Assembly (NCBI GenBank): GCA_963734525.1
Contig: CAVTHI010000009.1
Span: 67,429-131,428 of the forward strand
Source: an uncultured archaeon
GTDB taxonomy: Archaea > Micrarchaeota > Micrarchaeia > Anstonellales > Bilamarchaeaceae
Direction of reading: 5' to 3'
Length of the DNA stretch: 64,000 nt
Made by a program: the position numbers and the translations under genes. Below are positions 20,326 to 61,691 of this stretch, one piece after another; the stretch's first letter is position 1, and each line of letters opens with the position of its first letter. The notes under the pieces are model-generated. The model ran no database searches. It was not told the DNA's origin and saw only the letters and a program-made list of their open reading frames with translations.

Positions 20326-20335
20326 GGTGTTGACG

Positions 20336-29511: not shown

Positions 29512-32016
29512 ATGGCTGAGGTCCAACTTAGCGGAAACAGGTTAGTCGTCGTATGCAGGGGAACGAGTCGCTCGACTGGAGTGACAATCGACCCCAGCCA
29601 GCCCGACCAGATTGAAGCTGCGGTGAGGCGCGCCATCAGCGCCGCCGCGCCGTATTTCTACGGAATCGGGGAGGCGCAGGGGCGCGAGGTCGAGGCAATC
29701 AACGCGTCAACGGCAGCGTCAGCCATAAGGAGGAGCGTGGCCAGGTCCCAGCCGGCAGCACAGCCGACTGCACCTCCGGCTCCGACGCAAACAGCGCCTC
29801 CTGCAAGGACCGCACAGCCAGCGGCTCCGCCTCCGGCGAGGACAATGCAGCAGGCGGCACCCCAGGCGCCCGCACCGCCGAGGACCGAAGGAAGGGCCGA
29901 GGCGCCCGCCGCCCCCGCAAGGGATACTGCGGCAACGCGCGGAAGCGGCTCGGGAAGGAGGGGCAGCAGGACCGCGGAAGCGACGCCGCGCCCGACAATC
30001 ACGCTCGTATGGCTGGACCTGCAGCTGCGCGATTCGCGCCGCGACGACCGGCGCGCGCAGGCCGCGGCCAACCTCCTGCACTCGAACAGCAGGTTCGTGG
30101 AGACGTTCCTCGACCCCGGATTGCAGAGGGGAGTCGAGCGGACGGACGCGCAGAAGAGCGTGACCATCAGCATCTTCAACCAGCTTTACCAGATTCCGAG
30201 CTTCAGGCTATACCTCTCGTCGATGGCCGCCCAGCAGCAGGCGCTTCCCGAGCGCGACCGCGTGTTCTCGGAGTTCGTCACGCTCCAGGCGTTCCTCACC
30301 GAACCCGGACGCGGCGAGCAGCTGAGCGCCCAGGCAGAATCCCGCATCATATCCGCGGCAGATTTGTACATCAGGTATTTCCTGCTCAATTTCGTGGCGG
30401 CGAATTCCGACTATTCGAGATACCGCGAGGAAATCCTCCAGCTCCCGACGACGGCATGGAGGCTCCGGAACGTGGAGGGCGCAAGGACATTCCAGCCCAC
30501 GACCGGGCGCGCGCCGAGCGACCTCGACCGCGCCGCGCTGATGAGGCTGTATATATCAAGCCCGATGGACGCCGACACCGTGACATGCGCCTCGCTTTAC
30601 ATGCGCAGGTGGTTCATGGAACACCCCGAGAGGGGCAACGGGAGGAGCCAGTCGAGGATATCGCAGTGGAGGGCCCCGGAAATCATCCAGCCCGAGCAGA
30701 GGGCGGATGCGACTGCACAGCCGGTCGCCCAGCCTTCCGCGGTGCCGGCGCAGCCGGCGGCGACCACGGTCGTTCCGCGCGTGGGTATCATCGGCGACTC
30801 GATAACGGCGGGCGGAAGATACGGGAGGACGCTCCGGACCACGCTGCGCACGACGTCCCCGGAGGCTGTCGTCGATTCATACGGCGTCCAGAACGAATCC
30901 ATTTCGACAATCCGCGGCAGGTTCAGGCGCGACATCCTGGACCACAGCCCGGCCTACAACACGGTGGTCATACAGGGCGGCATCAACGGCATCGAGGGCC
31001 TCAGCGTGATTGACGCCGAAAGTTCGTTCACGAGGATGATAAGCGATGCGAGGGGGCGCGGCATGAAGGTCGTGCTGCTGACGATAACTCCGTGGGCGGG
31101 CTACAGCGGCTCGACGACGGAAGCCCAGCGCAGGACGGCTGAATTGAACACCTGGCTCCGCTCGCAGGCGCAGGCCGACGGCAGCGTGGTTGTGGTCGAC
31201 ACGTCCGCGCTCGGCGAAGGGAATCCGCCAAGGCTGCGCGCAGCGTACGACAGCGGCGACGGCCTGCACCCCAACGACGCGGGCAGGGATTTGATAGCCC
31301 AGCGGATTGCGCAGGCCGCGTTCGCAAGGGCTCCGACCGCGACCGAAACGAGGACCGCGCTCCAGGATTTCGCAGACAGGAACTGGAGGTCGCTTCCGGC
31401 GGAGATTTACCGCCACGCCCAGGGAGGGAACCCGGCTGGCTTCATAACGCTTACGAGGAACCTTCCGGCGGGCGAGACATCGTTCGAAGGCGCGCTCCGG
31501 ACGCTCAGCCGCGACGACATACCCCGCGCATACGACAGGATTTTCAACGAATACCTGCATACGGACCGCAGTTTCCTGGATTTCTGCAACACCTGGCGCG
31601 AAGGCGAGACGCGCCCGTACGAGGGCGTGGCACTGGCGTCCGTGACGATGAGCGCGAGCAGCTCGCCTACCGACCGCAGGCTGGTGGTGCGCGCAATCCA
31701 GGCATACCTTAATTACACTGCGGGCAGGACGGGCGAGGACTGGTACAGCAGGCTGCGCGACGATTTCCGCATGATGAACCGCGACGTCCTCGGTCTCACG
31801 CGCGACAACCTGGACGTGAACGGGCTCGAGGACGTGCGCACGCTCGCCGCAGTCGCGGTCTACAGCTGGAGGAAGGGACACCGCAGCGAGGCGGTCGGCG
31901 CCTGGGCGACGTCGCTCAACATCACGCCCAGGACAACGCCCCCGGCCCAGCCGGTGCAGCCGGTCGTGCCTCCGGGCCAGGACGGCCAGAGGAGAAGGGT
32001 CATCCACCCCGGCTGA
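29512..32016 (+). CDS. G3: 834-aa protein with an SGNH/GDSL hydrolase domain
   Basis: AAGGAG lies upstream. Pro/Ala-rich linker at 29745-29995. SGNH blocks: VGIIGDSITAGG (I), VVIQGGINGI (III), GDGLHPNDAG (V) at 30775-31330. The flanking regions are unrecognised. Confidence 0.85.
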   Translation: MAEVQLSGNRLVVVCRGTSRSTGVTIDPSQPDQIEAAVRRAISAAAPYFYGIGEAQGREVEAINASTAASAIRRSVARSQPAAQPTAPPAPTQTAPPARTAQPAAPPPARTMQQAAPQAPAPPRTEGRAEAPAAPARDTAATRGSGSGRRGSRTAEATPRPTITLVWLDLQLRDSRRDDRRAQAAANLLHSNSRFVETFLDPGLQRGVERTDAQKSVTISIFNQLYQIPSFRLYLSSMAAQQQALPERDRVFSEFVTLQAFLTEPGRGEQLSAQAESRIISAADLYIRYFLLNFVAANSDYSRYREEILQLPTTAWRLRNVEGARTFQPTTGRAPSDLDRAALMRLYISSPMDADTVTCASLYMRRWFMEHPERGNGRSQSRISQWRAPEIIQPEQRADATAQPVAQPSAVPAQPAATTVVPRVGIIGDSITAGGRYGRTLRTTLRTTSPEAVVDSYGVQNESISTIRGRFRRDILDHSPAYNTVVIQGGINGIEGLSVIDAESSFTRMISDARGRGMKVVLLTITPWAGYSGSTTEAQRRTAELNTWLRSQAQADGSVVVVDTSALGEGNPPRLRAAYDSGDGLHPNDAGRDLIAQRIAQAAFARAPTATETRTALQDFADRNWRSLPAEIYRHAQGGNPAGFITLTRNLPAGETSFEGALRTLSRDDIPRAYDRIFNEYLHTDRSFLDFCNTWREGETRPYEGVALASVTMSASSSPTDRRLVVRAIQAYLNYTAGRTGEDWYSRLRDDFRMMNRDVLGLTRDNLDVNGLEDVRTLAAVAVYSWRKGHRSEAVGAWATSLNITPRTTPPAQPVQPVVPPGQDGQRRRVIHPG

Positions 32017-32179: not shown

Positions 32180-35100
32180 ATGTCAGGGCCAAGGTTGAAA
32201 TGGAATACGGAATTGTCCGAGAGGGCGGCCGAGTATGCGAGAAGGCAGGCACAGGCGGCCATGTCGAATATCCCGTTCAAGCTCAAGGCCGCGCTGATTG
32301 GGGGCATGATGAGCATCGGCGAAGCGGCCGGTGCAAGCAATATAAACAGCGGCGGGGGAGATGGTATAATGGCCTTCCAGAAGATGCCCGGGAGGAGCGG
32401 CGGGTTGAAAGAGGCGGGGGAAACGCATGCCGTTGCGCCACATGAGTCCATCCGCATTGCCGTGCAGCAGGCGCAGGTCGCCACGGAGAAGCTGAGGGAG
32501 TTCATGCTCGGCGGGAACCAGGCCCGCGCAGAGGAATTCCTCAGGATTTACGACGACTGGACGCAAAGGGAGGAAAGCGAGTCCGGCGAATTCAACGACG
32601 CGTTCATGGTGGCGCTGCGGGAAAGGGTGATGAACGACCCCGAGCTGGGGCCGATATTCAACGCTTACTGGGGCGCGAGGACGACCGAAGACGGCGGGCT
32701 CGACCTCACGCAGCTTTGTGTCAGCGTGAGCGAGGTCTTCAGGGCGGCCGCATCCGGAAGCGCGGAAGCCATCGAGGAGCTACGCAGGCAATACGGCGAA
32801 TTCGCGGGGGCATTCGTCGACGGCATAGTGGCGGTCTATCAATCATCGCAGGGCGCGGAGGAAGGCATCGCGCAAGCCGTCCCCGTCCCGGTGAGGACCG
32901 AGGACCAGACCGAAACGGACGCGGGCCGCGCAGCAGATTTCATCAGGAATTTCGCGCGCTCTAGCGACGAGGAGGACAGCCGCGGCCACGACCAGGCATA
33001 TTACCTCGGCCAGCTTATGGGGATACTCGCGAGGTACCGCGACGGCGACGGATTCGATTCGTCGTTCCTTGGCGCGCTCCTGCGGAGGCTGGGGGAGCGC
33101 GAGAGGGCCGTGCTCGAAGGGTTCGAGAGAAGGGTGGGAATAGGCGAGGGCGAATCGCTGACATTCTCAAATTTCGAGCGGTTCCTTGAGGATGTGGGGA
33201 TTGTCTCGCGCGAGCTGCGCGCCGGCGAGCAGCAGTCCGTCAACCTTGCCAACCTGCGCACGCGTTACGGGGATGCGTTCGTGACTGCTATGCAGAGGCT
33301 GTTGCCCGCCCAGGAGCCGATGCACCTTGCCACTCTTTCGATATTACGGGAGAAAATAGACGCCATTCGAGCGTTTGCAAGGGAGAGGCATATCGGCCTT
33401 TCGACGATGCAAATCAGCGGCAGGACGCTTGATGAATGGGAGGGGGAGCTCGAGGAACTGGAGGCGCAGGGCGAAGACGCGGACCAGGAAGCGATAAACA
33501 CCATGAACGGCAGCCTGCCCTCCGAGAATGCGCTCTTGCGGGAGGAGCGCGAGGCGCGGAGGATATCCTCCAGGCTCGACATACTCATCAACGGGACGCG
33601 CCCGTTCTACTATAATATAGGGGAAAGCTGGCTTTCGATGGCACGGAGCCTCCTCATGCAGGCCGACAACCGCGGGGCCGGGGCGGCATCCGGCGGATTC
33701 TTCACGATACTGTTCACGCGGGATTTAGGGGAGAGGGACATGCGCCTCGAGGACGTGGTGAGCACGGGCGTGGACGAGGAAAGCGGGGAGGAGACGAGCG
33801 AGGTCAGCACGGGCGTCCGCTCCACCATCGAGAGGATTTCCGACGCGATTCCACTACTGCGGAGCATCAGGCTCATGGTGAACGGCGGCTTCCGCGAATC
33901 CGACATGGACAGCACGCGGAGGATGATAAGCGAATTGCCGGATGATTTGTTCCCGCAGGAAGTGCGTGACGCGATGGAACACGGCTTCGAGCAGACGGCG
34001 CGGTCTGCGGCGGAAACAGGATACGACGAGGGCACGATAAGGAGCGCAATCACGATGGTGAGGCGCGCGTGCAGCGGACTTGGCCCGGAAATCCAGGACA
34101 GGCTCCTCATGGGGACCGTGTCGAGCTGGCATAACGACACGGGAGAGAGCGAGGAGGGCGCATCGAGGCTGCAGGCATTGGACGATGCGTATTCGCATAT
34201 CGCATCCGGCGCGGTGTTCGGCGAGTTCCAGGAATTCACCGGCCTGCTGGAGGAAAGGTTCCGGATGGAGGCCGAGTCAGCGCAGACCGGGCTCCCGGAT
34301 GAAACCGCATTCGACGGCATCCTCATCCGCGACGCGCGGACCAGGCTGACGAACGCCTCCGAGATTTTCCGCAACAGCCCCCTCGAGATGAGGTTCGCCA
34401 TTTTCCAGCTGTTCCAGGGCCAGCGCCCGTCCGGGGAGCTTTCAAGCGAGGACATCGGGCGCATCGCCGCGGTCATAAACGGGCTGGAAGGGATGCCTTC
34501 GGCATATGCCGCGCTGCTCATCCAGCGCGCCGGCCCGACGCTCTTTGCGGACTATGATGCGCAGAGCATAGAGGTCATCCTCACGGCAATCAGCTCATAC
34601 AGCCAGCCGCTCATCAACGCGGGCATGTACCGCGAGCTCGAGGAGTATTACGAAGGCATCGGCGACCGGATAGCGGACCTGTTCGTCGACGTGGTCGCGC
34701 TCAGGAACGTCGCGCGCGAACAGGGCGGCATGCTCCGCGACGTGCGCGTGAGGCTGCCTGGGGACAGGCCGGATTTCGCGGACCTGTACCTGCCTGCGAG
34801 CAGGATTTCTATCAGCCTTCCCAAAAGGATTTACGAGCGCTGGGTGTCGGAGGGCGCGGTCGTCCGCGTCACCCAGTCTCCGGACATCAGGGAGTCGCCC
34901 GCCCCTTCGCCGGGCATGGGCGCAATCGAGCGGGCGTTCTTCGGCCGCGATGCCATCCATATGGAGATGAACGTCCCGATGCCGCTCCTTTCGCTCCCGC
35001 TCGTCATCGAGAACCTCGGCGCCCTGCGCCCGCGCTATGCGATTCCTGTCGAGGAGATGAACGAGCTCTGGGCCGACGCCTCGGGGGCGGTGCATTCCGT

Positions 35101-37096
35101 CACGGGGCCGGACCAGGATGCGATGGACTATTCTTTCGGAGAAGCAGTCGGCCAGCGGGGCGGCGGAAGGGACTGGTCGCAGAGCGTCTACGGCACGGGC
35201 GGCGACGGCCAGCAGCGCATTCTCGGCAACCTCAGCTGGAACAACCAGCCCCTCGGCGGCATGACGCGCGAGGGCGAGCAGAGGAGCACCACCATGACGA
35301 GGGGCAGGTTCGACGTCGACGTCGAGGGCTCCATGCTCGAGCGCATGATGCTTTCCATGGATGCGACCGCGCCTTCGGGCTCGGACACCGCGGTATATTT
35401 CCTGAAGGAAGGCGACACGTACCGCTCATATGTCTTCCAGAGGTTCGGAGGCGGAAGCTTCGGGCTCGTGGATGTCAGGACGTTCACGGAAAACGAGGCG
35501 CGGATGTTCTACGAGCGCACGTTCGAAAGCCAGCCCTGGCGCCTCTACGGCGGCGCGAGAATCAGCGGCGGCGACGCGGGAGGCGCGCGCGAGGACTGGA
35601 TGGCGGCGATGGACGGGGCGGTCCTGTTCTCAGGGCTCCCGAGCGATGAGGAGCAGTTCCAGGGCGCAGGCGCCGCGGTCCAGGTGGGCACCGGCGGCGG
35701 GGCCGCCGATTACGAGCACACGCGCGGACAGCGGAGCGGCCTCATGGGCGCTTACATAAATCCTGAAGAGCGCGAATATTACGTCGGGCGACTCTATCTT
35801 AGCGCGCTCGAGCAAAGCGCGGAGAGGCCGGGCGTCGGCGTGCACGGCGAGTTCCAATATTTCAGGGCGAGGAGAGGGACTATCGACGCGTTCCTCGGAA
35901 GCAGGGAGGTCGGCGAGGAAGGCTCCGCGGCCGAGGACATAGAAGGCGGAATAATCGCGTCGTATCTCGGCGAAGGCTGGTGGGGCGGGGGGCGCGGCGG
36001 ATACATGATGAGCCAGATGATAAGGCCGCAGGCTGAGGGAACCGTGCCCGAGCTTGCGTTGACGCGCCAGCAGGTTGCGGGCGGTTCGGTGTATGGCGGC
36101 ACGGATTTGCGCGTGCTGGCCCTGACCGCGGCCGCATCAGCGGTATGGACGCAGGAGCTTGAGGACATGCCCGCGGACGCGACGGAAGGGGAATGGCAGC
36201 AGCACATGGCCGCGGCGCTCAGCATGTACGTCCCGGCTATCTATAGCAGGCTTATGGGCGGCGGCGTCCACGAGGAGGATTACTGGACCGGCGGCCACGG
36301 AATCGTGTCCGTTCTTTATCCGCTCGAGTGGCTGAGCGAACTGAGCGCGTTCGGAATCTATCTCCAGGGCGAAGGGGAGCATGAAGGCGAAACGCTCCCG
36401 ATTGTCGGCGCGAACGCCGAGGTGGTGCCAGGCCGCGGGACAAGGTTCAGGGTGCAGGCTTTCGGCGTGATAGGCGCCGGGGGCGGCGCTGACTTGCGCG
36501 CGTTCTTCGGGACCGAATCCGGATTCGATTTCTCGGTCAACGGCGTCTATACCGAGGGCATGGACACCGTGGGGCAGGGCATATCCGGCGCGCTGAGGCT
36601 GCGCCTCGGTGAGGACGAGGACGAATACAGGGTCAGGCTCATACTCGCAGGGGGATACTCCGAGCAGGAGGTCGCCGGGGAGACTGTTGTCAGCGGCGAA
36701 GGCGCGGGAATCGTCCGGGTGAATCTCGCGGAACCAGGGACCGAGCCGACCGTGACGGACATCCATGTGGGCGTGAGCGGCATCCACACCGAAGTGACGC
36801 CGGTGAGCCCGGACGAGGAGGCCGTCAGCGCGGACCAGGTCGATGCGCAGGCGGGCGTGACTGTCGGGACCGCGGACTGGAGCCTCGACGCGCACGCGGG
36901 CGTGCAGTACTGGACTGCGGAAGGGGACGAGAGGCTGTATATAACCGTGGGCGGGGAATACCAGCTCTGGAACGGCGAGGGCGACATCCAGGGGCTCAGC
37001 CTCGGGGGGAGTTTCAACGGGCTCGTCTATGAGGAGGGCGAGTCTAGGGCGAGCGATTACAACTTCACGATTAATCTGAGATTGCTGAACATGTGA
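32180..37096 (+). CDS. giant protein G4 (1638 aa), unknown function
   Basis: GGGGGA lies about 9 nt before the ATG. Starts MSGPRLKWN. The N-terminal ~170 aa are homologous to G5. Acidic helical middle. The C-terminal ~220+ aa are Gly/aromatic-rich with alternating hydrophobic residues, ending ...YNFTINLRLLNM. Confidence 0.85.
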   Translation: MSGPRLKWNTELSERAAEYARRQAQAAMSNIPFKLKAALIGGMMSIGEAAGASNINSGGGDGIMAFQKMPGRSGGLKEAGETHAVAPHESIRIAVQQAQVATEKLREFMLGGNQARAEEFLRIYDDWTQREESESGEFNDAFMVALRERVMNDPELGPIFNAYWGARTTEDGGLDLTQLCVSVSEVFRAAASGSAEAIEELRRQYGEFAGAFVDGIVAVYQSSQGAEEGIAQAVPVPVRTEDQTETDAGRAADFIRNFARSSDEEDSRGHDQAYYLGQLMGILARYRDGDGFDSSFLGALLRRLGERERAVLEGFERRVGIGEGESLTFSNFERFLEDVGIVSRELRAGEQQSVNLANLRTRYGDAFVTAMQRLLPAQEPMHLATLSILREKIDAIRAFARERHIGLSTMQISGRTLDEWEGELEELEAQGEDADQEAINTMNGSLPSENALLREEREARRISSRLDILINGTRPFYYNIGESWLSMARSLLMQADNRGAGAASGGFFTILFTRDLGERDMRLEDVVSTGVDEESGEETSEVSTGVRSTIERISDAIPLLRSIRLMVNGGFRESDMDSTRRMISELPDDLFPQEVRDAMEHGFEQTARSAAETGYDEGTIRSAITMVRRACSGLGPEIQDRLLMGTVSSWHNDTGESEEGASRLQALDDAYSHIASGAVFGEFQEFTGLLEERFRMEAESAQTGLPDETAFDGILIRDARTRLTNASEIFRNSPLEMRFAIFQLFQGQRPSGELSSEDIGRIAAVINGLEGMPSAYAALLIQRAGPTLFADYDAQSIEVILTAISSYSQPLINAGMYRELEEYYEGIGDRIADLFVDVVALRNVAREQGGMLRDVRVRLPGDRPDFADLYLPASRISISLPKRIYERWVSEGAVVRVTQSPDIRESPAPSPGMGAIERAFFGRDAIHMEMNVPMPLLSLPLVIENLGALRPRYAIPVEEMNELWADASGAVHSVTGPDQDAMDYSFGEAVGQRGGGRDWSQSVYGTGGDGQQRILGNLSWNNQPLGGMTREGEQRSTTMTRGRFDVDVEGSMLERMMLSMDATAPSGSDTAVYFLKEGDTYRSYVFQRFGGGSFGLVDVRTFTENEARMFYERTFESQPWRLYGGARISGGDAGGAREDWMAAMDGAVLFSGLPSDEEQFQGAGAAVQVGTGGGAADYEHTRGQRSGLMGAYINPEEREYYVGRLYLSALEQSAERPGVGVHGEFQYFRARRGTIDAFLGSREVGEEGSAAEDIEGGIIASYLGEGWWGGGRGGYMMSQMIRPQAEGTVPELALTRQQVAGGSVYGGTDLRVLALTAAASAVWTQELEDMPADATEGEWQQHMAAALSMYVPAIYSRLMGGGVHEEDYWTGGHGIVSVLYPLEWLSELSAFGIYLQGEGEHEGETLPIVGANAEVVPGRGTRFRVQAFGVIGAGGGADLRAFFGTESGFDFSVNGVYTEGMDTVGQGISGALRLRLGEDEDEYRVRLILAGGYSEQEVAGETVVSGEGAGIVRVNLAEPGTEPTVTDIHVGVSGIHTEVTPVSPDEEAVSADQVDAQAGVTVGTADWSLDAHAGVQYWTAEGDERLYITVGGEYQLWNGEGDIQGLSLGGSFNGLVYEEGESRASDYNFTINLRLLNM

Positions 37097-37149
37097 AAAC
37101 GCAGGAGAAGAATGCTGTAGATGCAGAGACGGTATGGGGGAGATTTGAC

Positions 37150-37578
37150 ATGGAATGGACCGGAATACGATTATACAAGGCGGAGGCGGAATGCGTGTCC
37201 GACAGGAAGTTCGAGGGAATCGCGGCATCGCTCGACATCACCGGAATCGGCATGACCGGGGGCGGCGCGCTTAAAATCGATTTCACGCACACGACGAAAT
37301 ACCAGCCCGGAATCGCGATGATACGCTTTTGCGGGTTCGCGCTCGCGAAGGGGAAGAAGGCCGAGCTCGATTCGCTGCTTGCGGGGTGGAAAAAGGACAG
37401 GTTCCTGCCCAAGGACGTGTTCGAGACGCTCGTGAACCTCGCGAAATACTCCGCGGAGACCAACGGGGTGCTCGTGGCCAAGGCATTGAACATCGCACCG
37501 CCGCTGGTCGTCCCGAGGGTCCGCCTGGCAGAGCCGCAGCCCCGGATTCCGGCCCAGAAGGCCGGAAAAAAGAAGTAG
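37150..37578 (+). CDS. small conserved protein, possible SecB-like chaperone fold (paralog of 46865-47311)
   Basis: The track starts at GTG 37093, overlapping the G4 stop. ATG 37150 has GGGGGAG about 9 nt upstream and aligns with the paralog. Shared pattern: ALKIDFTHTTKYQP.IAMIRFCGFA... / GVILEFTYAVDYKP.IGSLRMTGEAF..., then NGVLVAKALNIAPPLVVP / NSIFLLRPFNLLPPFMPP, and a Lys-rich tail. Function is inferred only. Confidence 0.65.
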   Translation: MEWTGIRLYKAEAECVSDRKFEGIAASLDITGIGMTGGGALKIDFTHTTKYQPGIAMIRFCGFALAKGKKAELDSLLAGWKKDRFLPKDVFETLVNLAKYSAETNGVLVAKALNIAPPLVVPRVRLAEPQPRIPAQKAGKKK

Positions 37579-37670: not shown

Positions 37671-37916
37671 GGTTCCAGCCCCAGCAGTTGGGGGCGGCAT
37701 CGGGAGTTTTCAACAGAATTTCATATACACGAATTTCCTTTTTGAGTGACAACTCTTTATATTCTTTTCTGACCAATATACAACTCGGACAGACACAATA
37801 CTCGGTGGCAGAAGATTCCGGGCCATTGCAGCGCAAGAGCGGCCCGGAACGGAAAGGATTTCATACTAACTCAGAACCCGCCAGCGTGATTCGGGTTCTC
37901 AAGGAAGGATGCTCAT

Positions 37917-40900
37917 ATGGCCGGTCCGAGGTTGAAGCACGGGGAGGAAAAGGAGGTGCCAGAAGGCGCGCCGTCCGAACGCCGCAGCAGGCCGAATTCG
38001 GCAGCCTTTTCACGGCCAGGGTGGCGCGATTGGCCACCGCGACGCTTGCCGGAATTATGACGTTGGAAGGCATAACTAATTTAAATATCCTTAGTCCTAA
38101 TGTTGCCATGGCACAACCGAGGCGGAAGGGGGGCGCGGAACCAGAAGAGATCACAAGGCTCCAGGCACAGGCCGTGGATGCCGCAAATGCTTTTCGGGAT
38201 TATATCGTAGGAGGGGACCCGGCCAGGAGGCAGTTTTTCTGGACCACCTACAACCAGGCGTTCGGCGGTGCCACGCTGCACGACAACTCCACGTTCATGA
38301 CGAAGCTCTTCGAGGAGCTCGACCGCATCGGCAGGGACCCAGGGGTCCAGCCGTTGCTCGCCGCATTCACGGCGGACCGGGGAAGCCTCTTCGGCTTCCT
38401 CTGGAGCAATCCGGTGCATTTCACGGATTTCATCGATACCACTTACAACATCAGGCAGAGGCTCGAAGGGGGCACGGCGAGGCCCGCGGACATAACGAGG
38501 CTCTCCCGGCAGGTCCGCGAATCGCAGGGCAGGCCGGCCAGGGCGGACACCCAGGTCGGGCGCGTCCGCGCGGCGATGGAGGCCAACACGAGCCTCACCG
38601 TAGAAGACGCGGTGAGGGCGGAGCTGGAGAGGCCGAGCCGCGAGGAGGCGACGGCGAGATACGGCGACAACCTGACGCGCGAAGTGATTGCGCGCTCCCC
38701 AGGGCAGTTGGCAATCAGGGCGGCTGTCGCACTGCGCGACTTCATACTCACTGGGGACGAATCCAAGCGCACGCTTTTCCGCAGCATCTGGGACGCGAAC
38801 ACCACCCAGGCGTTCACCGACGCGTTCACAGCGGAATTCACGGCGAGGATTTACCGCGACAGCGGCTCGGGCCTCGCGGCGATTGCGCAGGCTTACAACA
38901 CCAGGCACAGCGGGACCGACCCGATAGCGTTCGCCACAATGATTACGCAGCTCTATGCGGCGGCGGGCTCGCGCACAGACACCACGCGCGAAATAGAGCA
39001 GATGCGCACGGCCGAAGGCACGAACGTCGTGGACCCGCTCCTGGCAATAGTGGCAAGGGGCATGGCGGGCAGGGCGATAACGCTCATGCGCGACGTGCTC
39101 GAGAACGGGACTCCGGCGTCACGGGACCAGTTCGTCGCTATATTGAACGGCAGGCTGGCGGTCATTGCGAACAACGCGGTCCAGATGCCGAACGTCGAGA
39201 ACAACGACGTGTTCTGGAACGAGTTCACGCGGCTTTACACCGCGGAAATCGGGCAGAGCAGCCGCCTTGCGACGCTGGTGCGGAGCTTCCAGAGGAATAT
39301 ACTCCCGATTGCAATCAGGGACATCTACACGGAGCTTGCGAGGGCGAGCCCGGACACTGCGAGGCTGAATGCGGATTACGGGCCTGACCTTGTGGGGCTC
39401 ATCGCGTCCAACACAGGCACGCTTTCGTGGATGGCGCGCCCGGATTCGGACTTGTCCTCGGAAATCACGAGGAGGTCGCGGGCGGAGGACCCGGCCGCGG
39501 TCCGCGTAAGCGGCGTCCGCCTGGCTCAGGGCGTTTCCAGGCCGGCGGCGCTTAGGGAGACTTATATCGCGCTCGTGCAGGAAAGGGCGGTCACGCGCAC
39601 GGTCGAGGCGCCGGACGTGACGGCCATACTCGAGCGGAATTTCGATTCGCTTTCATACCTTGCCGGAACGCCGGCCCAGGTCCAGAGGGAGATTGAGCGG
39701 AGGGCGAGGGCCAGGCCGCCGGATGCGGTTGCACAGCAGCTGCTCGCGCGCTTCCCCACAAACGCCGGAGCATCGCTCTCGGCCGCGTACACCGCGCTCC
39801 GCGACGCGCGGACGCGCAGGGCTGCGCTCGTAACGCAATACGGCCAGGAATTCGTGGACATCGTGGCGGCGAACCTCGACGGACTCCAGTGGGTCATGAG
39901 GCCCGTGGAAGAGATAGACAGCCAGATGCGCTCCAGGCGCGACGACGCGTTCGTCCGCTCGGTCAACACCAGGATAGGATATTCGGTCGGCACGCTCGCG
40001 CATGGCCTCCGCGACATCTATACCGAGTTCGGCCGGCCTACGCCGGACCGCGCAAGGCTGGACCAGACTTACGGCTCTGAACTCGTGACGCTCGTGGCGA
40101 CCAACCGCGCGAGCCTCGGATGGCTCGGAAGCGACCTCGCCACGGTGGAGAGGACGCTCCAGGACCCGAGCACGGACGCAACCACGCGCTCGCTGCAGCT
40201 CAAGCTTTACAGTTATACGCCGGTCCAGCTCGTTTCCGCAATCGCCCGCGCAAGAAGCGCAATCACCAGGCGCGGGCTCGCCCTTGCGGATGCGACAGAC
40301 GCATACGGCACGGTCTTCGTAGGCCCGGTCGTTTCGCGCCAGGCGGTCGTCACCCCGTCAATCTCGCCAGAGGTTGCGCAGCCCCTCCAGCAGGTGCTCG
40401 AATCCCGCGCGCTCGGCATAGTGCGGCAGTTCGAGGAAATCGACAGGCAGCTCCGCTGGCCCATCCTCGAGCCGGCGCGCGTGCTCATCCAGGAGCGCAT
40501 CAGGCTCTGGAGGCAGGAGAACGACGCAATCAGGCTGGAGGCCAGGCAGACGCAGGACCCGACCGCGCTTGCGGCGCTCGAAACACGGCAGGCGACGCTC
40601 ATCAACTCCATGCTCACGCCCGCAGAAATGCGCCGCTCGGTCGAAATGGCGTTCGCCATGGTGCACCTTGCGGAGACAGGCGGCGATATGAGCCGCGCGC
40701 CCAGCCTCAGCGACGTCACGACGACGGACCAGGACATCGGGACATTGAGGAGGCTCTCGGAGTGGTACCGCGGGCTGAGCACGACGGGGAAGCAGCCGGT
40801 GGTGGGCGAGGTCGTCTCGTCCGTGCTTTACCGCGCCGACCCGAACCTGTACCAGTTCATAACCGGGCTGTCCGAACCCGGATTCGTCAGCGCGATCTCG

Positions 40901-42661
40901 CGCGTATATTCGCTCACAAGGAGAATCGGCGGGGACAACAGGCAGACGCTGGTCGCCCTTTACGGCGAGCAGTTCGTGGCGCTCGTGGAATCGCAGGCGC
41001 CGCACCTGCGCATCCTTGAAAGCCCTTCGGTGATGGCGAACCCCGCGGCGACGATGGCAAGCCTCAGGCGTGGCGAGAACGAGCTTTACGCGAGCATAGT
41101 CGTCCGCGTCTACAGGGCCGTGTCGAGCCCGGCCGCAGGCGAGGACAGGGCGAGGATGGAGAGCCTCTTCGGGCCCGAGTTCGTGGCCGCAGTCGTGGCG
41201 AACCAGGCGCAGATGACAGCACTCGGAACGGGCACGGCAGGCCTTCCGGAGGTCCAGGCGCTCCCCGAATCCGTCAGGCGCGCACTCGCGGCCGCGTATC
41301 CGGCGGCTTACCAGAGAAGCATCGGGGCACTTGTCCGCGGATTCCGCAACCAGGAGGACTGGATGTTCAGGAGCATGTCCGCGGTGTACGCGGCCCTGCG
41401 CGAAAGGCCGGCCCGCGGGGCTTCGGCTGATGCGACGCAGGCGTACGCACAGCGCGTCAGGGAGCTGAATGCCGCATACGGCGACAGCTTCGTCGCTACT
41501 ATAAGCGAGAACATGGCGCAGTTCGAGTTCCTCCAGCGCCCGACTTCTTCGCCGAGGGACCTGGCCAACATCCCCCCCGAGCTCCGCGAACGGCTCAACA
41601 CCACTTTCGAAGGCGGGCCTGCGGTGGGCAGGGCGAGCTTCATGACGAACTTCCTGCGCGTATACGAGCAGCTGCCGAGGGTGTACACCCAGCTGCGCGG
41701 GGCGCTCGCGTTCTCGAACCCGACGGACACGCTGCCGACGACGCTCGCGAACGCCATCGCCTATTACCGCCAGCAGTTCGGAAGCAACAACTACCTCTTC
41801 AACCAGTACATCAACCTGGACCTCCTCAGCAGGAACATCCAGCGCATCGCACGCAGGTACAACGTCCAGCTTCCGCCGAACATCGCGGACGGCATCGATT
41901 CGCCGGAGGAGCTCTCGCAGTTCATCAGCACCGAAACCGGGAGGAGCCTGCTTGCGGCGGGAAGGACGTTCTATAACGATACCCTGCTCCCGCTGTACCA
42001 GCAGCAGAAGGTCGGACAACAACTTCCACCCGACGACCGGCGATTACACCGACGCGAACGTGACGAACCTGGTGAACCAGCTTTCCATCCTCGACGCGCT
42101 CTACCTCGGCGTGGCGCTCGAAAGCGTTTCGGGAACCGACAGCGCGTTCCAGCGGTCGGCCGCGACGGCGACCATGAACGCGATTCTCGTCATCTCGAAC
42201 CGCGACCCGTACCTCGTAGGGCCGTTCCTCCTCCAGGTGCTCCCGGCTATCCTGTCATGCTCGCAGGACGAGCGGACCATCGTCGCCGCGATAGAGGCGT
42301 TCAACGGGATATTCACCCAGAGGTACGAGACGGGAACGAGGGAAATCGCATACAGCAACGCCCTCAACCGCAGGTATTTCCTCGAGGTGTTCCAGCGCAT
42401 CGGCGACAGGCTCCCCGAGGTCACGAGCTCCTACGACCACAGCAGGCTCGAGGACGAGCTGCGCCTCACCCCGGAGCCCAGGACCGACGAGGGATACATG
42501 AGCCCGCTGCTCTACCGCTACAGGCCGGGCTTCTGGCAGGGCGACGGCCTCGAGGCGCTTCCGACGATGTACGGCCAGCAGGGCTCGCCGATACGCCTGC
42601 TTCCGAGGCCCACGATGCCGACAAGCCCGTTCCTGCCGGTTCCGGGAGGATTCACGATTGA
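37917..42661 (+). CDS. giant protein G5, N-terminal part (start ATG 37917; frame change near 37960-37980; credible to about 42013)
   Basis: AAGGAAGGA lies 8 nt before ATG 37917, which opens MAGPRLKHGEEKEV..., parallel to G4 MSGPRLKWN. That frame stops at 38058-38060. The tracked 37688 frame then reads RRAVRTPQQAEFGSLFTARVARLATATLAGIMTLEGITN..., homologous to G4. After LYQQQKV (about 42013) the tracked frame becomes Arg/Pro junk. Confidence 0.8.
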
Positions 42662-45600
42662 TTCGGGCGCGAGCGACATATTCAGCAGCATGTACGACCA
42701 GCTTCGGCCGCCGGTGGAAAGGATGTTCCGCCAGCGCGTGCCTGCCAGGTTCAGGATAGGCGCGCTCGGCGCATCGACGATTATACGCAGGATAAACCAG
42801 CTCTTCGGCCCGATGCCGGTCGATTACAACGATTACTGGCTTAGCGCCTTCGGCGAAGCCGGGGCATACTACGCGCACCAGGAGAGGGGGCCGACCTCGA
42901 CGAACAGGGGCGGCCTTGCAGGCGTCGGCGGAGGCCGCACGATCAGCGGCGGCGAAAGGGCGACCGCCAGGTGGACGCGCGACCAGACCGAAACCGCGAT
43001 TCCGGCCGGCGAAGGCCAGGCGCGGAGCGCCACGTCCACGACTTCGGATACCGTGGACATCAACGCATCGGCAGTCAGGCTGCCGCCCCCATTGTCGGGA
43101 CCGGTGCCGCTTCCGCTCCTGGGCGTCGTGCCGTACGACCTGTTCAGGATGGGCGAGGGAACCGGCTCGGCATACGTGGCGAGGCCGCAGTCCGAAGTCC
43201 AATCCGAGCTCGAGCGCAGGCGCGGAACCGGGGACCAGGTCGTCGCGAACATATTCACGCTCAGGCCGAACAACACCGCGGCGGCCCTTCTCGACACGTA
43301 CACCGAACTGCTCAAGACCGCGCCGGACCGCACTAGGCTGGAGCGGGATTACGGAAGGCCGTTCGTCGAGCTCGTCGCTGGCAACAGGCAGTACCTCAAC
43401 TGGGTCCTGTCGCAGTCACCCGAGATGGGCGTCGGAATACACCGCGCGAGGCAGGAATTCCATTACGAGAACTCGAGCACGACGCAGACCACCGCGCCGC
43501 CGGCAGGGCAGGCCGGGGACACTACGGTCACGGACACGCAGACGAGGGGCAGGACGAGGGGGCTCCTCGAGACCTACCAGAGGATTGCGCGCCAGTCCCA
43601 GACGGACATGCTCCTTTTCGTCGCGGGCGAGCACGTGCCCGAGCTTTCGTCGGCAGGCGGTGCAACATCCCAGCGCGGGGAGGACAGGCTCAAGACGAGG
43701 CTGTACTTCGTCACGCGCGAAGGCGACGTCTACCAGCTCGCATACGGCCTCGACACGAGGGCCCAGCTCCTCAACTACCTTTATGCCGGGGCGAACACCC
43801 AGCAGTTCCTCGCATCGGCGAGGGCTGTCGGGCGGCAGATGCTGACGGGCGACTCGGCGGCGGCCGGTTTCGACGGCGCGGCGGTGGGGTTCACCCTTCC
43901 GCGCTCGGGCGGGGATTCGTTCTCGTCCCTTGCGTTCGGCCAGCTTGTGCGCAGCATGAGGTACATGGACCCGGTCCACGCCGAGCAGGCCGCGGGCATG
44001 GCTGTCACCAGCCTCCTTGCGGACCGGAGGCAGAGGGACGTATATGCGGCGTTCTACCGCGGGGCGGAGATGATAACCGTCGACCAGCAGGACCGCCAGC
44101 ACATAACCGACACCAGGTTCGCTGAAGGGACCGGCGAGGTCATGTGGAGGCGCATGCGCATCGACCCCATGGCCTACCAGGCCGAGATAAGGGCGGCCGG
44201 CGGATACCCGGCGACCGTGGCGGCAAGGGGCCGCCTCGAATGGCGCCCCTCAAGATACCAGACCAACGCGCTCGGCGTCACGGCGGCCTACTCTCATATC
44301 GACCTGCTGCGCGAGATGAGGGCCGCGGGCGCGGATGCCAACGAAATTTACGGCGGATTGCAGACCGTCCTTACGAGCCTTTACGGCTGGTCCGAGGACA
44401 CGGCGAGGGACACCGGATGGCTCGCCGCGGGGAGCTACATGTACGCGCGCATGGAGAACTACACGATGCAGAATCCGGACGGCACCTACCGGACGCTGCC
44501 TTCGGGCCCGGAGGGGAACCCGGAGCAGCATTACGCGAGTGCCATGTTCATGTACTGGGCCCAGCGCCACGGCATACTCATGGGCGCGCAGAGGGTGCCG
44601 GGATGGACGAGGATATACGACAGGATAGACCAGGCCATGAGGCAGATACAGCAGAACCCGGCCAACGAGGCGACGATACTCGAAGGGCTTTCGCGCGCGC
44701 TGCGCGATGATTTGCGCAGGGACATCTGGCGCTTCGCCCTCGCATACGGGTATGACGGCGAGCGCGTCAGGATATACACCGTCGGAGGCGGCCAGTACGT
44801 CAACGATGAAACCGCATACGGGAACCTGTACAGCATGTTCATCTTCGGCAGGCCTGCGGCGGGATACGTGGACATCCTCGGCCACGCTTACGGGTATTCG
44901 CCCCTCGTCATCAGCGAGAACCCGGGCACGGCGGGGCAGTTCACCGTGACGCGCGGCAGGCAGACGCCGTTCGTCGACCTGTACACGGGGTTCGGCATCA
45001 TGGACTGGCCGAGCATCAGCCTGCAGAGGTACCAGAGGGAAGTGGCGATAACGAGCGCGCCGAACATCGCAGGGGCGGTGCGCGACGCCTACCGCGAACT
45101 CGGCGGCATGAGGAACAGGACGCGCCTCGTCCGCGACTACGGCGAATCCCTGGTCGCGCTGGTCGAGGAAGGCCGCGAGACGCTCAGCTGGATGATAAGG
45201 CCGGCCGCGCAGGTCCGAACCGAGATGCAGACGCGCCTCGGCCAGGACGACCCGATAGTGCTGTCGTTCCTCAACCTGCGCTCAGGACGGGAGAGCGGGG
45301 CGACGACGGTCAGCGCAGAGGACGCGGCCGCGCTCGTGGACATATTCACCGAGCTCCGGAAGGCCACGCCGAACCGCGAACGGCTCGAAACGAGGTATTC
45401 CCGCGAGCTCGTGGACCTTGTCGAGAGGAACAGCACGGACCTCGACTGGATGCTCCTCCCGGCAGACCGCATGAGAAGCGAATTCACGCGGAGGGCGCAG
45501 GCGAGAGGCTCGGTCGAAGCGAGGATGGCCGAGGTGTCATTGCCGGCCCCGCCCACCCAGGCGTCGCTAACAGGGCCCGAGGTCAAGACGCTCATGGAGC

Positions 45601-46709
45601 AGAACATGCTCGACGTGCTTGTCGGCGCAACAGGCGCGGATTCGCGCGTGGGCCTGAGCCCGGAGCGCTACGACATCCTGCTCGGAAGCCACCTCGGCAG
45701 CCCGGCAGGGAGGAGGGACAGGGCGACGACGTTCTACGTACTGCACACGCCGGTCTCGGAGCGCTCGGAGGCGAGGGGCTCGCTGGTCATCGGCGACCAG
45801 CAGGACCTCGACGAGTGGATGCGCCACGGCCACCAGATAGGGCGCGGCATTTCCCGCCTCGAAGTCGCGAGAACCGGAAGCGATTATACCTTCACGTTCT
45901 CGGGCGACAGGAGGCTTAGGGCGCTTACGGCCGAACGGTTCGTGGGAGGGATTACCGTCCCGCTCCGCGAATCCGAATTCAGGGTCGGAAGCAGCTGGAC
46001 GGTCGGCGGGCTGATGCAGGTCCTCCAGGACCACAGGCTCGACCTCCTCGCAGGCGCCATGTACGGAAGGCGCGAATACGGGAACGAGCGCTGGGACCAG
46101 TGGACCGTCACCGTTTCGGGCAGGCTGCAGGGCACGAACACCGCGACCGTCAGCGAGCAGTGGTACGGATACCTGTTCTTCAACCAGGCCACCAGGCAGG
46201 TGGTCGCCGCGAGCGGGGATGTGTTCAACAACGCCGAGGAGATGAGGCAGGTGTGCCAGACCCTCGGCGGGGCCGGGTGCAACAGCCTCTCGGACCTTTC
46301 GAGGACCACGGGCGGCGTCGGCCTCCAGTGGGCGCGGACGGACGTCGTCACGGGCGACCGGATGAGCTTCCACTTCTTCTTCGAAGGCGGCGTGGAGACC
46401 TACCGGCCGTGGAGCGGCGCGGGCTCAGGCACCGTGGACACGGGCGGGGGCAACACCGCCGCGGTGACAATCAACCCGCGCGACAACGCGTTCGTATTCC
46501 GCACCGGCGTAGGGTTCAACTACACCCAGCAGAGCCCCAACAGCACGATACCGAACATCTACTCGCTCACCTTGGGCGCGCAGAACGGCTCGTGGCCCCT
46601 CATACCCGGGGACGTCACGAGGCCGGAATACCTGCAGTCCTGGGGCACGTCGATGGAAACGGCCATACCGGGCTGGTCGCTCATGCTGCACGGCCGCGTG
46701 CAGTGGTAG
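41952..46709 (+). CDS. giant protein G5, C-terminal part (credible from about 42013; whole G5 about 2930 aa)
   Basis: From DNNFHPTTGDYTDANVTNLVNQLSILDAL... the composition is protein-like. Contains further ~50-aa repeats (43296-, 45087-, 45342-) and a beta-rich Gly/aromatic C-terminus ending ...GWSLMLHGRVQW. Changing GG to G at about 42011-42016 would fuse it to the previous frame. Confidence 0.8.
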   Translation: MRREGRSITIPCSRCTSSRRSDNNFHPTTGDYTDANVTNLVNQLSILDALYLGVALESVSGTDSAFQRSAATATMNAILVISNRDPYLVGPFLLQVLPAILSCSQDERTIVAAIEAFNGIFTQRYETGTREIAYSNALNRRYFLEVFQRIGDRLPEVTSSYDHSRLEDELRLTPEPRTDEGYMSPLLYRYRPGFWQGDGLEALPTMYGQQGSPIRLLPRPTMPTSPFLPVPGGFTIDSGASDIFSSMYDQLRPPVERMFRQRVPARFRIGALGASTIIRRINQLFGPMPVDYNDYWLSAFGEAGAYYAHQERGPTSTNRGGLAGVGGGRTISGGERATARWTRDQTETAIPAGEGQARSATSTTSDTVDINASAVRLPPPLSGPVPLPLLGVVPYDLFRMGEGTGSAYVARPQSEVQSELERRRGTGDQVVANIFTLRPNNTAAALLDTYTELLKTAPDRTRLERDYGRPFVELVAGNRQYLNWVLSQSPEMGVGIHRARQEFHYENSSTTQTTAPPAGQAGDTTVTDTQTRGRTRGLLETYQRIARQSQTDMLLFVAGEHVPELSSAGGATSQRGEDRLKTRLYFVTREGDVYQLAYGLDTRAQLLNYLYAGANTQQFLASARAVGRQMLTGDSAAAGFDGAAVGFTLPRSGGDSFSSLAFGQLVRSMRYMDPVHAEQAAGMAVTSLLADRRQRDVYAAFYRGAEMITVDQQDRQHITDTRFAEGTGEVMWRRMRIDPMAYQAEIRAAGGYPATVAARGRLEWRPSRYQTNALGVTAAYSHIDLLREMRAAGADANEIYGGLQTVLTSLYGWSEDTARDTGWLAAGSYMYARMENYTMQNPDGTYRTLPSGPEGNPEQHYASAMFMYWAQRHGILMGAQRVPGWTRIYDRIDQAMRQIQQNPANEATILEGLSRALRDDLRRDIWRFALAYGYDGERVRIYTVGGGQYVNDETAYGNLYSMFIFGRPAAGYVDILGHAYGYSPLVISENPGTAGQFTVTRGRQTPFVDLYTGFGIMDWPSISLQRYQREVAITSAPNIAGAVRDAYRELGGMRNRTRLVRDYGESLVALVEEGRETLSWMIRPAAQVRTEMQTRLGQDDPIVLSFLNLRSGRESGATTVSAEDAAALVDIFTELRKATPNRERLETRYSRELVDLVERNSTDLDWMLLPADRMRSEFTRRAQARGSVEARMAEVSLPAPPTQASLTGPEVKTLMEQNMLDVLVGATGADSRVGLSPERYDILLGSHLGSPAGRRDRATTFYVLHTPVSERSEARGSLVIGDQQDLDEWMRHGHQIGRGISRLEVARTGSDYTFTFSGDRRLRALTAERFVGGITVPLRESEFRVGSSWTVGGLMQVLQDHRLDLLAGAMYGRREYGNERWDQWTVTVSGRLQGTNTATVSEQWYGYLFFNQATRQVVAASGDVFNNAEEMRQVCQTLGGAGCNSLSDLSRTTGGVGLQWARTDVVTGDRMSFHFFFEGGVETYRPWSGAGSGTVDTGGGNTAAVTINPRDNAFVFRTGVGFNYTQQSPNSTIPNIYSLTLGAQNGSWPLIPGDVTRPEYLQSWGTSMETAIPGWSLMLHGRVQW

Positions 46710-46864: not shown

Positions 46865-47311
46865 CTACTTCTTCTTCACGGGCTTCTCCTTGGCAATGAC
46901 CTTGGCCTCGGTTGCAATCAAAGGAGGCATGAAGGGCGGGAGCAGGTTGAAGGGGCGGAGCAGGAATATGCTGTTCATGCCCGCGTTCGCGTTTATCATG
47001 TTGATGGCGGTCGCGCCGAACTCCATCGGGACGATTTTCGCCTTCTTGTATTCGACGAGCATCTTCTTGAGGTTCTCCGGGCTGTCGCGGCAGAACGCCT
47101 CGCCCGTCATCCTCAGCGAGCCGATGTCCGGCTTGTAGTCGACGGCATAGGTGAATTCGAGTATCACGCCGTCCGGCGCCTTCTGGGTGATTTTGTCGAC
47201 ATTGATGTTGATGTCGATGTTCGCAGGAACGCCGTCCTTTGCCTTCTTCACTTCGCCTCCCCGGAAAATAAGACCCATGACTTCAAGCATATTTATCCCG
47301 TCCATAACCAA
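46865..47311 (-). CDS. small conserved protein, possible SecB-like chaperone fold (paralog of 37150-37578)
   Basis: 148 aa, Lys-rich tail KEKPVKKK like its paralog (AQKAGKKK), shared beta-strand-like and LLPPF/IAPPL segments. Convergent with G5. Confidence 0.7.
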   Translation of the reverse strand: MVMDGINMLEVMGLIFRGGEVKKAKDGVPANIDININVDKITQKAPDGVILEFTYAVDYKPDIGSLRMTGEAFCRDSPENLKKMLVEYKKAKIVPMEFGATAINMINANAGMNSIFLLRPFNLLPPFMPPLIATEAKVIAKEKPVKKK

Positions 47312-61564: not shown

Positions 61565-61691
61565 GGGCTCGTAGCTCAGCTTGGATAGAGCGACGCTCTC
61601 CTAATTAGTAAAAATAACTGCCCGTTTTTGGGCACCTTTTTACTAAAAAGGCGCAAGGCGAAGGTCGTGAGTTCAAATCTCACCGGGCCCG
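61565..61691 (+). tRNA. tRNA-Arg(CCU) with a 52-nt intron
   Basis: GGGCTCG-TA-GCTC-AGCTTGGATA-GAGC-G-ACGCT-CTCCTAA (anticodon CCT), insert 61605-61656, GGCGA-AGGTC-GTGAG-TTCAAAT-CTCAC-CGGGCCC-G. One A-A mismatch at 27:43. The intron carries a 10-bp stem TTAGTAAAAA/TTTTTACTAA and an inner hairpin TGCCC-GTTTTT-GGGCA. Confidence 0.75.

Follow-up and report, generated by a model that had tools for sequence, protein, structure and literature searches.

A leader and helical-module cassette heading two families of giant proteins in Micrarchaeota, with a candidate promoter element inside the leader

Several described systems resemble parts of the N-terminal cassette examined here, which heads the giant genes G4 and G5 in a window (the whole stretch of DNA analyzed, 64,000 nucleotides) from an uncultured archaeon of the Micrarchaeota, family Bilamarchaeaceae (assembly GCA_963734525.1, contig CAVTHI010000009.1, positions 67,429 to 131,428, forward strand). 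The ESPR and other long signal sequences of autotransporters and two-partner-secretion proteins exceed 50 residues and join a conserved charged N-terminal extension to a signal-peptide-like part (PMC2805444; Hiss and Schneider, 2009). These resemble the present leader as long signals with a charged extension, the ESPR being restricted to very large surface proteins (PMC2805444). They differ in being bacterial (diderm), with a cargo that ends in an outer-membrane barrel, whereas the leader here has a much weaker hydrophobic core, a long c-region, and an overlapping promoter-like DNA element. A Pfam search of three leaders at E-values up to 10 gave no match to the ESPR family (PF13018), and ESPR signals are analogues, not homologues, of this leader. 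The YSIRK-G/S signal peptides of Gram-positive bacteria (PMC5962339) also place a conserved motif in the signal peptide of large surface proteins and direct a special route, but they share neither their motif nor their source organisms with the present leader and are not homologous to it. In Halobacterium salinarum, intraRNAs and internal transcription starts give rise to N-terminally shortened isoforms (Ten-Caten et al. 2018, PMC6161675). The likeness would lie in a promoter within coding sequence, a leaderless mRNA arising inside the gene, and a shorter isoform in the same frame; the element described here differs in that it is inferred from sequence only, and in its superfamily-wide conservation at saturated synonymous divergence, exactly at the boundary between leader and mature protein. 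The Giant1-5 genes of Apilactobacillus kunkeei are likewise five consecutive giant genes in a small genome (PMC12863079), but they are bacterial, carry a classical Sec/signal peptidase I signal, and are not homologous to the giants here. No description of the present giant proteins was found in the literature searched.

The source genome comprises 1.15 Mb in nine contigs with approximately 60% GC, the window lying on contig 9. Five giant open frames are arranged head to tail: G1 (15555-19766), G2 (20327-28741), G3 (29512-32016), G4 (32180-37096), and G5 (37917-46709). Among them a Pfam domain was detected in G3 only (GDSL lipase), and G1, G4, G5, the isolated leaders, and the helical modules gave zero Pfam matches. 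Homologues of the giant proteins are labelled by their sources as Candidatus Micrarchaeota, Micrarchaeia, or Bilamarchaeum.

G4 and G5 begin with a common cassette, a leader of approximately 65 residues followed by two or three copies of an all-helical module of approximately 130 residues, which heads two giant families in one Micrarchaeota family. A preliminary description, made from the letters of the window, had noticed the shared module; the additions to it are a promoter-like DNA element in the leader and a conserved SecB-fold partner gene. The best explanation of the whole, to which a probability of roughly 0.55 is given, combines the cassette with an internal promoter, two starts, a Sec-type leader, and possibly a chaperone. 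An upstream promoter and 5' untranslated region would produce a long form carrying the leader, and an internal promoter would produce a leaderless mRNA from an invariant ATG and hence a short form (MAQP...) that lacks the leader. In the long form, the leader would most likely be a Sec-type signal for export or membrane targeting, unusually long and weakly hydrophobic. With the putative A-x-A site one residue past the internal Met, the two forms would end up with nearly identical mature N-termini, and the SecB-fold protein encoded beside nearly every such gene would be a possible dedicated chaperone.

One cassette at the 5' ends of two giant families

The proposal that G4 and G5 share an N-terminal module was borne out by shuffled controls, BLASTP, and independent profiles. 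Smith-Waterman comparison against 2000 composition-preserving shuffles showed the alignment to be significant, with z = 14.8 over residues 1-270, 6.6 when restricted to the leader, and 8.1 for the residues that follow it; the observed score was equalled by 0 of 2000 shuffles. BLASTP between the two proteins gave E = 3e-4 and 6e-5. When the 12,058 six-frame open reading frames (ORFs) of the genome were searched with a profile of G5-family N-termini from which G4 and G5 had been left out, G4 was matched at E = 3.8e-12. A 58-member profile aligned to G4 from Met1 (E = 7.4e-34) and matched no open frame in this ORF set except G4 and G5, and a leader-only profile reached G4 at E = 3.9e-15 over model positions 1-66.

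A profile built from the first 330 residues and run on 1.84 billion representative proteins found 48 clusters, always matching at the N-terminus, with proteins falling into two size classes of approximately 1,580-1,930 and 2,500-3,060 amino acids. G4 belongs to the short class, with 44% identity to P0037 over the full length and 25-33% to several other members, whereas its similarity to the long class (the G5 family) is confined to residues 1-220; therefore, one cassette heads two giant families. Judged by sequence, G4 and G5 are homologous at their 5' ends only. Close homologues in a collection of 5.8 billion proteins numbered one for G4 and 15 for G5. Within the genus the leader was found in 35 of 40 genomes with 1-3 copies each, the strong matches in frame with open frames of approximately 1,600-3,100 amino acids and a few matches in shorter or broken frames. 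A phylum sample of 251 genomes contained the cassette in 13 of 46 members of one family and in 0 of 205 genomes across 27 other families, a distribution in which the cassette is lineage-specific.

Five elements make up the leader: M-[AGSTV]-G-x-[RK]-[LI] at the extreme N-terminus; approximately 20 charged residues, often with G-Q-S-L-S; a basic cluster, often RRR-x-x-F; a segment of 11-15 residues rich in A, G, T, and L; and [STM]-N-[IL]-[NK]-N-[LF]-G-G-N-x-A-M-A followed by Q-[PT], the Met of which is invariant in two alignments (A2 and A4). According to the AlphaFold2 model of the G5 orthologue at a related locus (L002, genome G062; predicted template modelling score 0.67), residues 1-70 are predicted to be disordered, with a predicted local distance difference test score (pLDDT) below 50, except for a helix at 31-45, which corresponds to the hydrophobic segment, and residues 71-330 are predicted to be all helical with pLDDT of approximately 90. 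Foldseek found no counterpart of this N-terminal model in the PDB (best E = 0.46, template modelling (TM) score approximately 0.15). The G4 module region matched the second module of G5-family proteins by BLASTP down to E = 1.8e-15. The cassette and the start of G5 comprise the following features:

32180..32374, plus strand: G4 leader, residues 1-65, with MSGPRLKW, a charged stretch, the weakly hydrophobic AALIGGMMSIG, and then SNINSGGGDGIMA (from translation and profiles).
32375..33379, plus strand: predicted all-helical modules of G4, two copies (profile domains at residues 1-265 and 231-400).
37917..37991, plus strand: probable true start of G5 and first 25 codons (MAGPRLKHGEEKEVPEGAPSERRSR), in a frame different from that of the gene body; the L002 homologue, which is in frame, has MAGSRLRHEDGQGEPERAPSERRRRAVF.
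37989..37992, no strand assigned: putative G5 frameshift 1, one G missing from a G run (approximately 37990), seen as a single 1-nt gap in the DNA alignment with L002.
37991..38113, plus strand: rest of the G5 leader in the frame of the body, AEFGSLFTARVARLATATLAGIMTLEGITNLNILSPNVAMA.
38114..39407, plus strand: predicted all-helical modules of G5, three copies (profile domains with independent E-values of 2.6e-54, 3.1e-22, and 2.6e-5).
42008..42017, no strand assigned: putative G5 frameshift 2, one extra G in a short G run, restoring the frame of the first ATG (ORFs 37688-42661 and 41952-46709 overlap; alignment with L002).

The ATG at 37917 encodes MAGPRLKHGEEKEV and its frame stops after 47 codons, and the body of G5 is a 1,657-codon frame shifted by -1 relative to it. 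The placement of the G5 start at 37917 in the preliminary description holds; its junction between the two frames was set too early, 'RRAVRTPQQ' being out-of-frame text. Across the junction the leader reads MAGPRLKHGEEKEVPEGAPSERRSR|AEFGSLFTARVARLATATLAGIMTLEGITNLNILSPNVAMAQP, the true junction being ...APSERRSR|AEFGSLF.... In L002, with 71% protein identity to G5, the whole leader stands in one frame, MAGSRLRHEDGQGEPERAPSERRRRAVFGNRFIARWATAALAGAMTLGGVSNLNNLGPNAAMAQPQ..., and the leaders of G023 and G062 are in frame with open frames of 2,904 and 2,933 amino acids. Leader and body do occupy different frames in this assembly, as a programmed ribosomal frameshift would require, but none of the relatives examined changes frame here, the plain GG/GGG run lacks a slippery heptamer, and an opposite single-G indel follows 4 kb downstream. 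Since the relatives are in frame, the shifts are taken not to be programmed, and a recoding event is given almost no weight. The two single-G frameshifts, which are not conserved in relatives, would be either assembly errors or recent decay; strong matches place the leader in frame with a giant body in 34 other genomes of the genus, with a few in shorter or broken frames. Elsewhere in the same genome, the giant gene G000:C8:239343-256349 (plus strand) consists of three overlapping frames, implying two frameshifts. Many other ORFs of at least 1,000 amino acids are intact in this genome, and frameshifts seem concentrated in few giant genes.

G1 had been counted as a third member on the grounds that three giants open with M-[AS]-G-P. 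This did not stand: G1 gave z of approximately 0 against both G4 and G5, was matched by no profile, and has only "MAG" in common with them. Within the genus, 25 of 36 genomes have a homologue of G1, and most of these homologues keep 'MAG' without P, RLK, or a hydrophobic stretch; M-[AS]-G begins approximately 2% of the crudely called genes in this genome. Two further giants look similar in part. G2 starts (window 20336-20400) with MGGSQLRTPEESQETRR...AETEETRRLYDQAV (MGGSQLR...), resembling by eye the first leader motif and the beginning of the helical module, with no hydrophobic segment, and this start was matched by no profile. A giant of 1,391 amino acids at G000:C7:36631-40803 (minus strand) starts with MGGPKRLQDNTEF...GGRRLTFFGRFLLSTAMVGASMTGGAMRQASA|ETT (MGGPKRLQ...RRLTFF...hydrophobic...A-x-A), the same leader architecture by eye, and was likewise matched by no profile; the representatives P0051 and P0061 look similar to it.

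The promoter-like element and the two candidate starts

Thirty loci were aligned on the invariant internal ATG. Positions -30 to -22 from this ATG read AAT-ATA-AAY or AAT-TTA-AAY in 30 of 30 loci (ATWTAAA at -29 to -23), while the G+C content at third codon positions (GC3) of the same ORFs spans 0.19 to 0.91. Among the 20 loci with GC3 of at least 0.7, the first codon of the motif was NAT in 20/20, with AAT at approximately 20% of Asn codons in the background, and Leu at the middle position was TTA in 9/9, with a background of approximately 1% of Leu codons. Protein-level selection alone cannot give this codon pattern, which points to an element constrained as DNA within the best-conserved stretch of the leader. 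The corresponding features are:

32339..32347, plus strand: TATA-box-like AATATAAAC in the G4 leader coding sequence, -30 to -22 (same columns in 30/30 loci; codon-bias test).
32369..32371, plus strand: internal ATG of G4 (Met64, invariant), candidate start of a leaderless transcript and short isoform.
38078..38086, plus strand: TATA-box-like AATTTAAAT in G5, -30 to -22, with Leu encoded by TTA, a codon found rarely or never elsewhere in the ORF.
38108..38110, plus strand: internal ATG of G5, lying in the frame of the long ORF; a short form would start MAQPRRKGG.
37706..37783, plus strand: conserved non-coding block (approximately 78 nt) upstream of G5, near-identical to L002, with TTTATAT at 37756-37762, approximately 160 nt before the first ATG.

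Archaeal TATA boxes include the sequences ATATAAA and TTTAAA, and the archaeal promoter of a leaderless mRNA has its TATA box centred approximately 26 nt upstream of the transcription start. Upstream of the start codons of this genome, TATA-like hexamers peak sharply at -31 to -27 (217 hexamer hits among 981 crudely called genes), compared with approximately 5 per position elsewhere. Because of this sharp peak, most genes here would be transcribed as leaderless mRNAs starting at the ATG, and leaderless transcription appears to be the rule in this organism. On a weight matrix built from the genome's own TATA-bearing promoters, the internal site of G5 scored 13.7, much as a median genuine promoter does, which corresponds to quantile 0.39 of the genome's promoters and to the top 0.45% of all 38,270 ATG triplets. 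The first ATG presents a different picture: a TATA element at promoter distance was found in only 1 of 24 loci, the nearest TATA-like elements lying at -50 to -170. In L002, TATA-like hexamers stand at -160/-159, and the block upstream of G5 is near-identical there although the proteins are only 71% identical; this block is probably the upstream promoter of the long form together with a regulatory site.

Two starts per gene are inferred because the element is constrained as DNA and occupies the position of the genome's own TATA boxes, and an internal promoter that yields a leaderless mRNA, and thereby long and short isoforms, is likely. Several points weigh on the other side. The loci are phylogenetically related within one genus, which makes the naive joint codon probability (1e-35) an overstatement; the internal site of G4 is weak on the promoter matrix, scoring 2.4 (top 2% of ATGs); and the matrix was trained on genes chosen for a TATA hexamer, which makes the comparison partly circular. 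Furthermore, the leader evolves fast with a modest third-position excess, so that selection at the protein level is only modestly visible. Fast evolution is usual for signal-like regions, yet it leaves some room for a leader that is seldom translated.

The strongest form of that doubt holds that the internal ATG is the sole real start, the leader being rarely or never translated and its conservation reflecting promoter-upstream DNA and drift. By the genome's rule of a TATA element at approximately -29 the internal ATG looks canonical and the first ATG does not. Because of the promoter-like element before the internal ATG, public gene callers start at least 10 homologues at the internal Met ('MAQP...'), with intact leaders upstream, and the fast evolution of the leader would fit as well. 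Nevertheless, in more than 24 loci the stretch of approximately 55 codons has no stop and keeps its frame, all indels being multiples of three; the conserved M-[AGSV]-G-x-[RK]-[LI] begins exactly at an ATG; a Shine-Dalgarno-like purine run precedes about half of the first ATGs; and the leader-only profile reaches E = 1.7e-27. A sole internal start is accordingly regarded as improbable. Alternatively, the Gly-Gly codons could form an internal Shine-Dalgarno site that adds to or replaces the leaderless start. GGAGG or GGGGG occurs 10-15 nt before the internal ATG in 15 of 24 loci (window 38090-38107 and homologous loci), and where the L-G-G-N motif is present its first Gly is nearly always encoded by GGA or GGG, but the purine run is missing in G5, L002, and others, and this possibility is ranked below the TATA box.

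In the only close orthologue of G4 (L001:1031-1033, also G017:C110), the codon of Met1 is ATA and the gene is called from Met27. The purine run before the ATA is kept there, and the 26 codons after it are still conserved in a protein-like manner, with two-base synonymous Leu changes among the substitutions.

What the leader may do as a protein

The leader had been proposed as a targeting, processing, or assembly signal unlike Sec, Tat, or class III signals. It is conserved on approximately 48 clusters of giants, always at the N-terminus, and targeting or processing would be its most plausible function at the protein level. The doubt about Sec stands only partly: the core is about half as hydrophobic as a classical one and starts late, but once homologues are compared, an A-x-A site and an n-, h-, and c-region anatomy can be made out. 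The 12 residues before the hydrophobic core hold 2 K/R and 0-1 D/E, with an RRR or RKR cluster in most members, and around the A-M-A|Q site small residues stand at -3 and -1 in nearly all members (A/V/I/S/T and A/G/S/T, respectively). The genome encodes SecY (E = 6e-64) and a candidate archaeal-type signal peptidase I with SCSMLP, VHR, and GDNN boxes; the latter was sought with TIGR02228, PF00717 being unsuitable since it did not match archaeal controls. For the long form, a weak, extended Sec-type signal is the best guess.

Several properties of the leader sit poorly with this assignment. Its core of 11-15 residues has Kyte-Doolittle values of 1.5-2.3 (11-residue average 1.5-1.8), compared with 3.0-3.4 in six classical signal peptides of the same genome; approximately 15 residues separate the core from the A-x-A site, long for a c-region (3-7 usual); and basic residues follow the putative cleavage site. 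The core also begins at residue 34-40, compared with residue 4-7 in the classical signal peptides. The embedded promoter may account for the long polar 'c-region', because a B recognition element (BRE)-like GCGGAA, the TATA box, a spacer of 21 nt, and the ATG need approximately 13 codons.

An uncleaved N-terminal signal-anchor, holding the long form at the cytoplasmic membrane (N-in, with the giant body outside and the polar stretch as a juxtamembrane element), would make use of the same basic cluster on the N-side of the hydrophobic segment and would not be troubled by the distance to A-x-A; an S-layer protein from Micrarchaeota poses the same question of signal peptide versus transmembrane helix (bioRxiv 10.1101/2021.04.28.441871). 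Such an anchor is considered unlikely, though less so than a sole internal start, given that the segment is short and weak, its 19-residue Kyte-Doolittle average of 0.7-1.4 lying below usual transmembrane values, and that small residues are conserved at -3 and -1. The long n-region, RR followed by hydrophobic residues, weak h-region, and A-x-A also recall a twin-arginine (Tat) signal, and RRRSVF, RRRAVF, or RKRSIF stands just before the weak h-region in many members. However, no TatC match was found in this genome; TatC is present in 3 of 40 genomes of the genus and in 0 of 16 high-quality ones, compared with the leader in 35 of 40. Moreover, RR is not invariant (G4, P0038, P0055, and others are without it), and the cargo would be 1,600-3,000 residues, so that export by Tat deserves hardly any credence. 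A class III (type IV pilin-like) signal was rejected, since the conserved motif and the putative site lie after, not before, the hydrophobic stretch. A double-glycine leader and a lipobox were also set aside, judged by eye, because GG is not universal and there is no conserved Cys.

SecB-fold neighbor genes and the biology of the giants

Two small genes with a predicted SecB fold adjoin the cassette-bearing giants:

37093..37578, plus strand: small SecB-fold gene directly after G4, a paralogue of 46865-47311 (E = 2e-14).
46865..47311, minus strand: small SecB-fold gene facing the 3' end of G5 in convergent orientation (AlphaFold2, Foldseek).

The AlphaFold2 model of the 46865-47311 product, from a 41-sequence alignment, has a pLDDT of 84, with strands at 8-21, 29-43, 46-58, and 62-73 and helices at 76-89 and 94-119. 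The top 11 matches in a Foldseek search of the PDB were all SecB (E. coli, H. influenzae) or the SecB-like Rv1957, the best with TM scores of 0.54/0.57 (range 0.3-0.57), their E-values of 6e-3 to 2e-2, none at or below 0.001, counting against the assignment. The predicted four-strand and two-helix topology is that of SecB (E. coli 1QYN, H. influenzae 1FX3/1OZB, M. tuberculosis Rv1957 5MTW; PMC6377645), but Pfam and PDB profiles gave no sequence match between the neighbor genes and SecB, and the Foldseek E-values are only approximately 1e-2. PMC4361572 cites a report of a SecB homologue, MJ0357, in M. jannaschii.

Members of this family occur in all 40 genomes surveyed from the genus. A copy lies within 1.5 kb of 29 of the 35 leader-bearing giants, at the 3' end in 27 and usually less than 200 nt away, and NCBI locus tags confirm the adjacency in three records. 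Bacterial SecB serves weakly hydrophobic preproteins that are exported post-translationally; archaea are not known to have SecA. A SecB-fold chaperone beside weakly hydrophobic leaders would fit post-translational handling. Ranked equal with this, the neighbor may instead act at the C-terminus of the giant, as in chaperone-addicted antitoxins (PMC6377645). A third, distant copy of the family (25% identity) is found away from the giants at G000:C4:1132-1476 (plus strand). Such a distant copy, likewise apart from the giants, exists in most of the genus, and it may serve as a general-purpose paralogue.

The order of genes in L002 is G2-G3-G5 with no G4, and in the relative G023, G4 and G5 adjoin. 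At L002:2949-6001, G5 follows directly after G3, and both G4 and its small SecB-fold neighbor are absent. From these gene orders, the pair of G4 and its neighbor is read as an insertion/deletion polymorphism within the genus. Elsewhere in the window, a geranylgeranyl reductase domain and a tRNA with an intron are archaeal markers; the intron-containing tRNA gene at 61565-61691 scored 46 bits with Rfam and was missed by ARAGORN in bacterial mode.

A more far-reaching version of the two-start proposal, held tentatively and on balance doubtful, is that the superfamily-wide embedded promoter supplies both an exported or membrane form and a leaderless cytoplasmic form of each giant, the N-terminus of the latter falling almost at the cleavage site, and that a dedicated SecB-fold chaperone would handle the weakly hydrophobic long form after translation in an archaeon without SecA. 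Micrarchaeota are tiny, host-dependent archaea. The giants of this one block amount to approximately 2.7% of the genome and would be prime candidates for host contact. For two families of them there is now a defined N-terminal cassette and a conserved partner gene with a predicted chaperone fold. Gene calls that start at the internal Met mean that surveys of 'secreted' giants in these archaea would miss the leader, and the arrangement yields a testable prediction, namely that one gene with two promoters would give a leader-bearing and a leaderless product.

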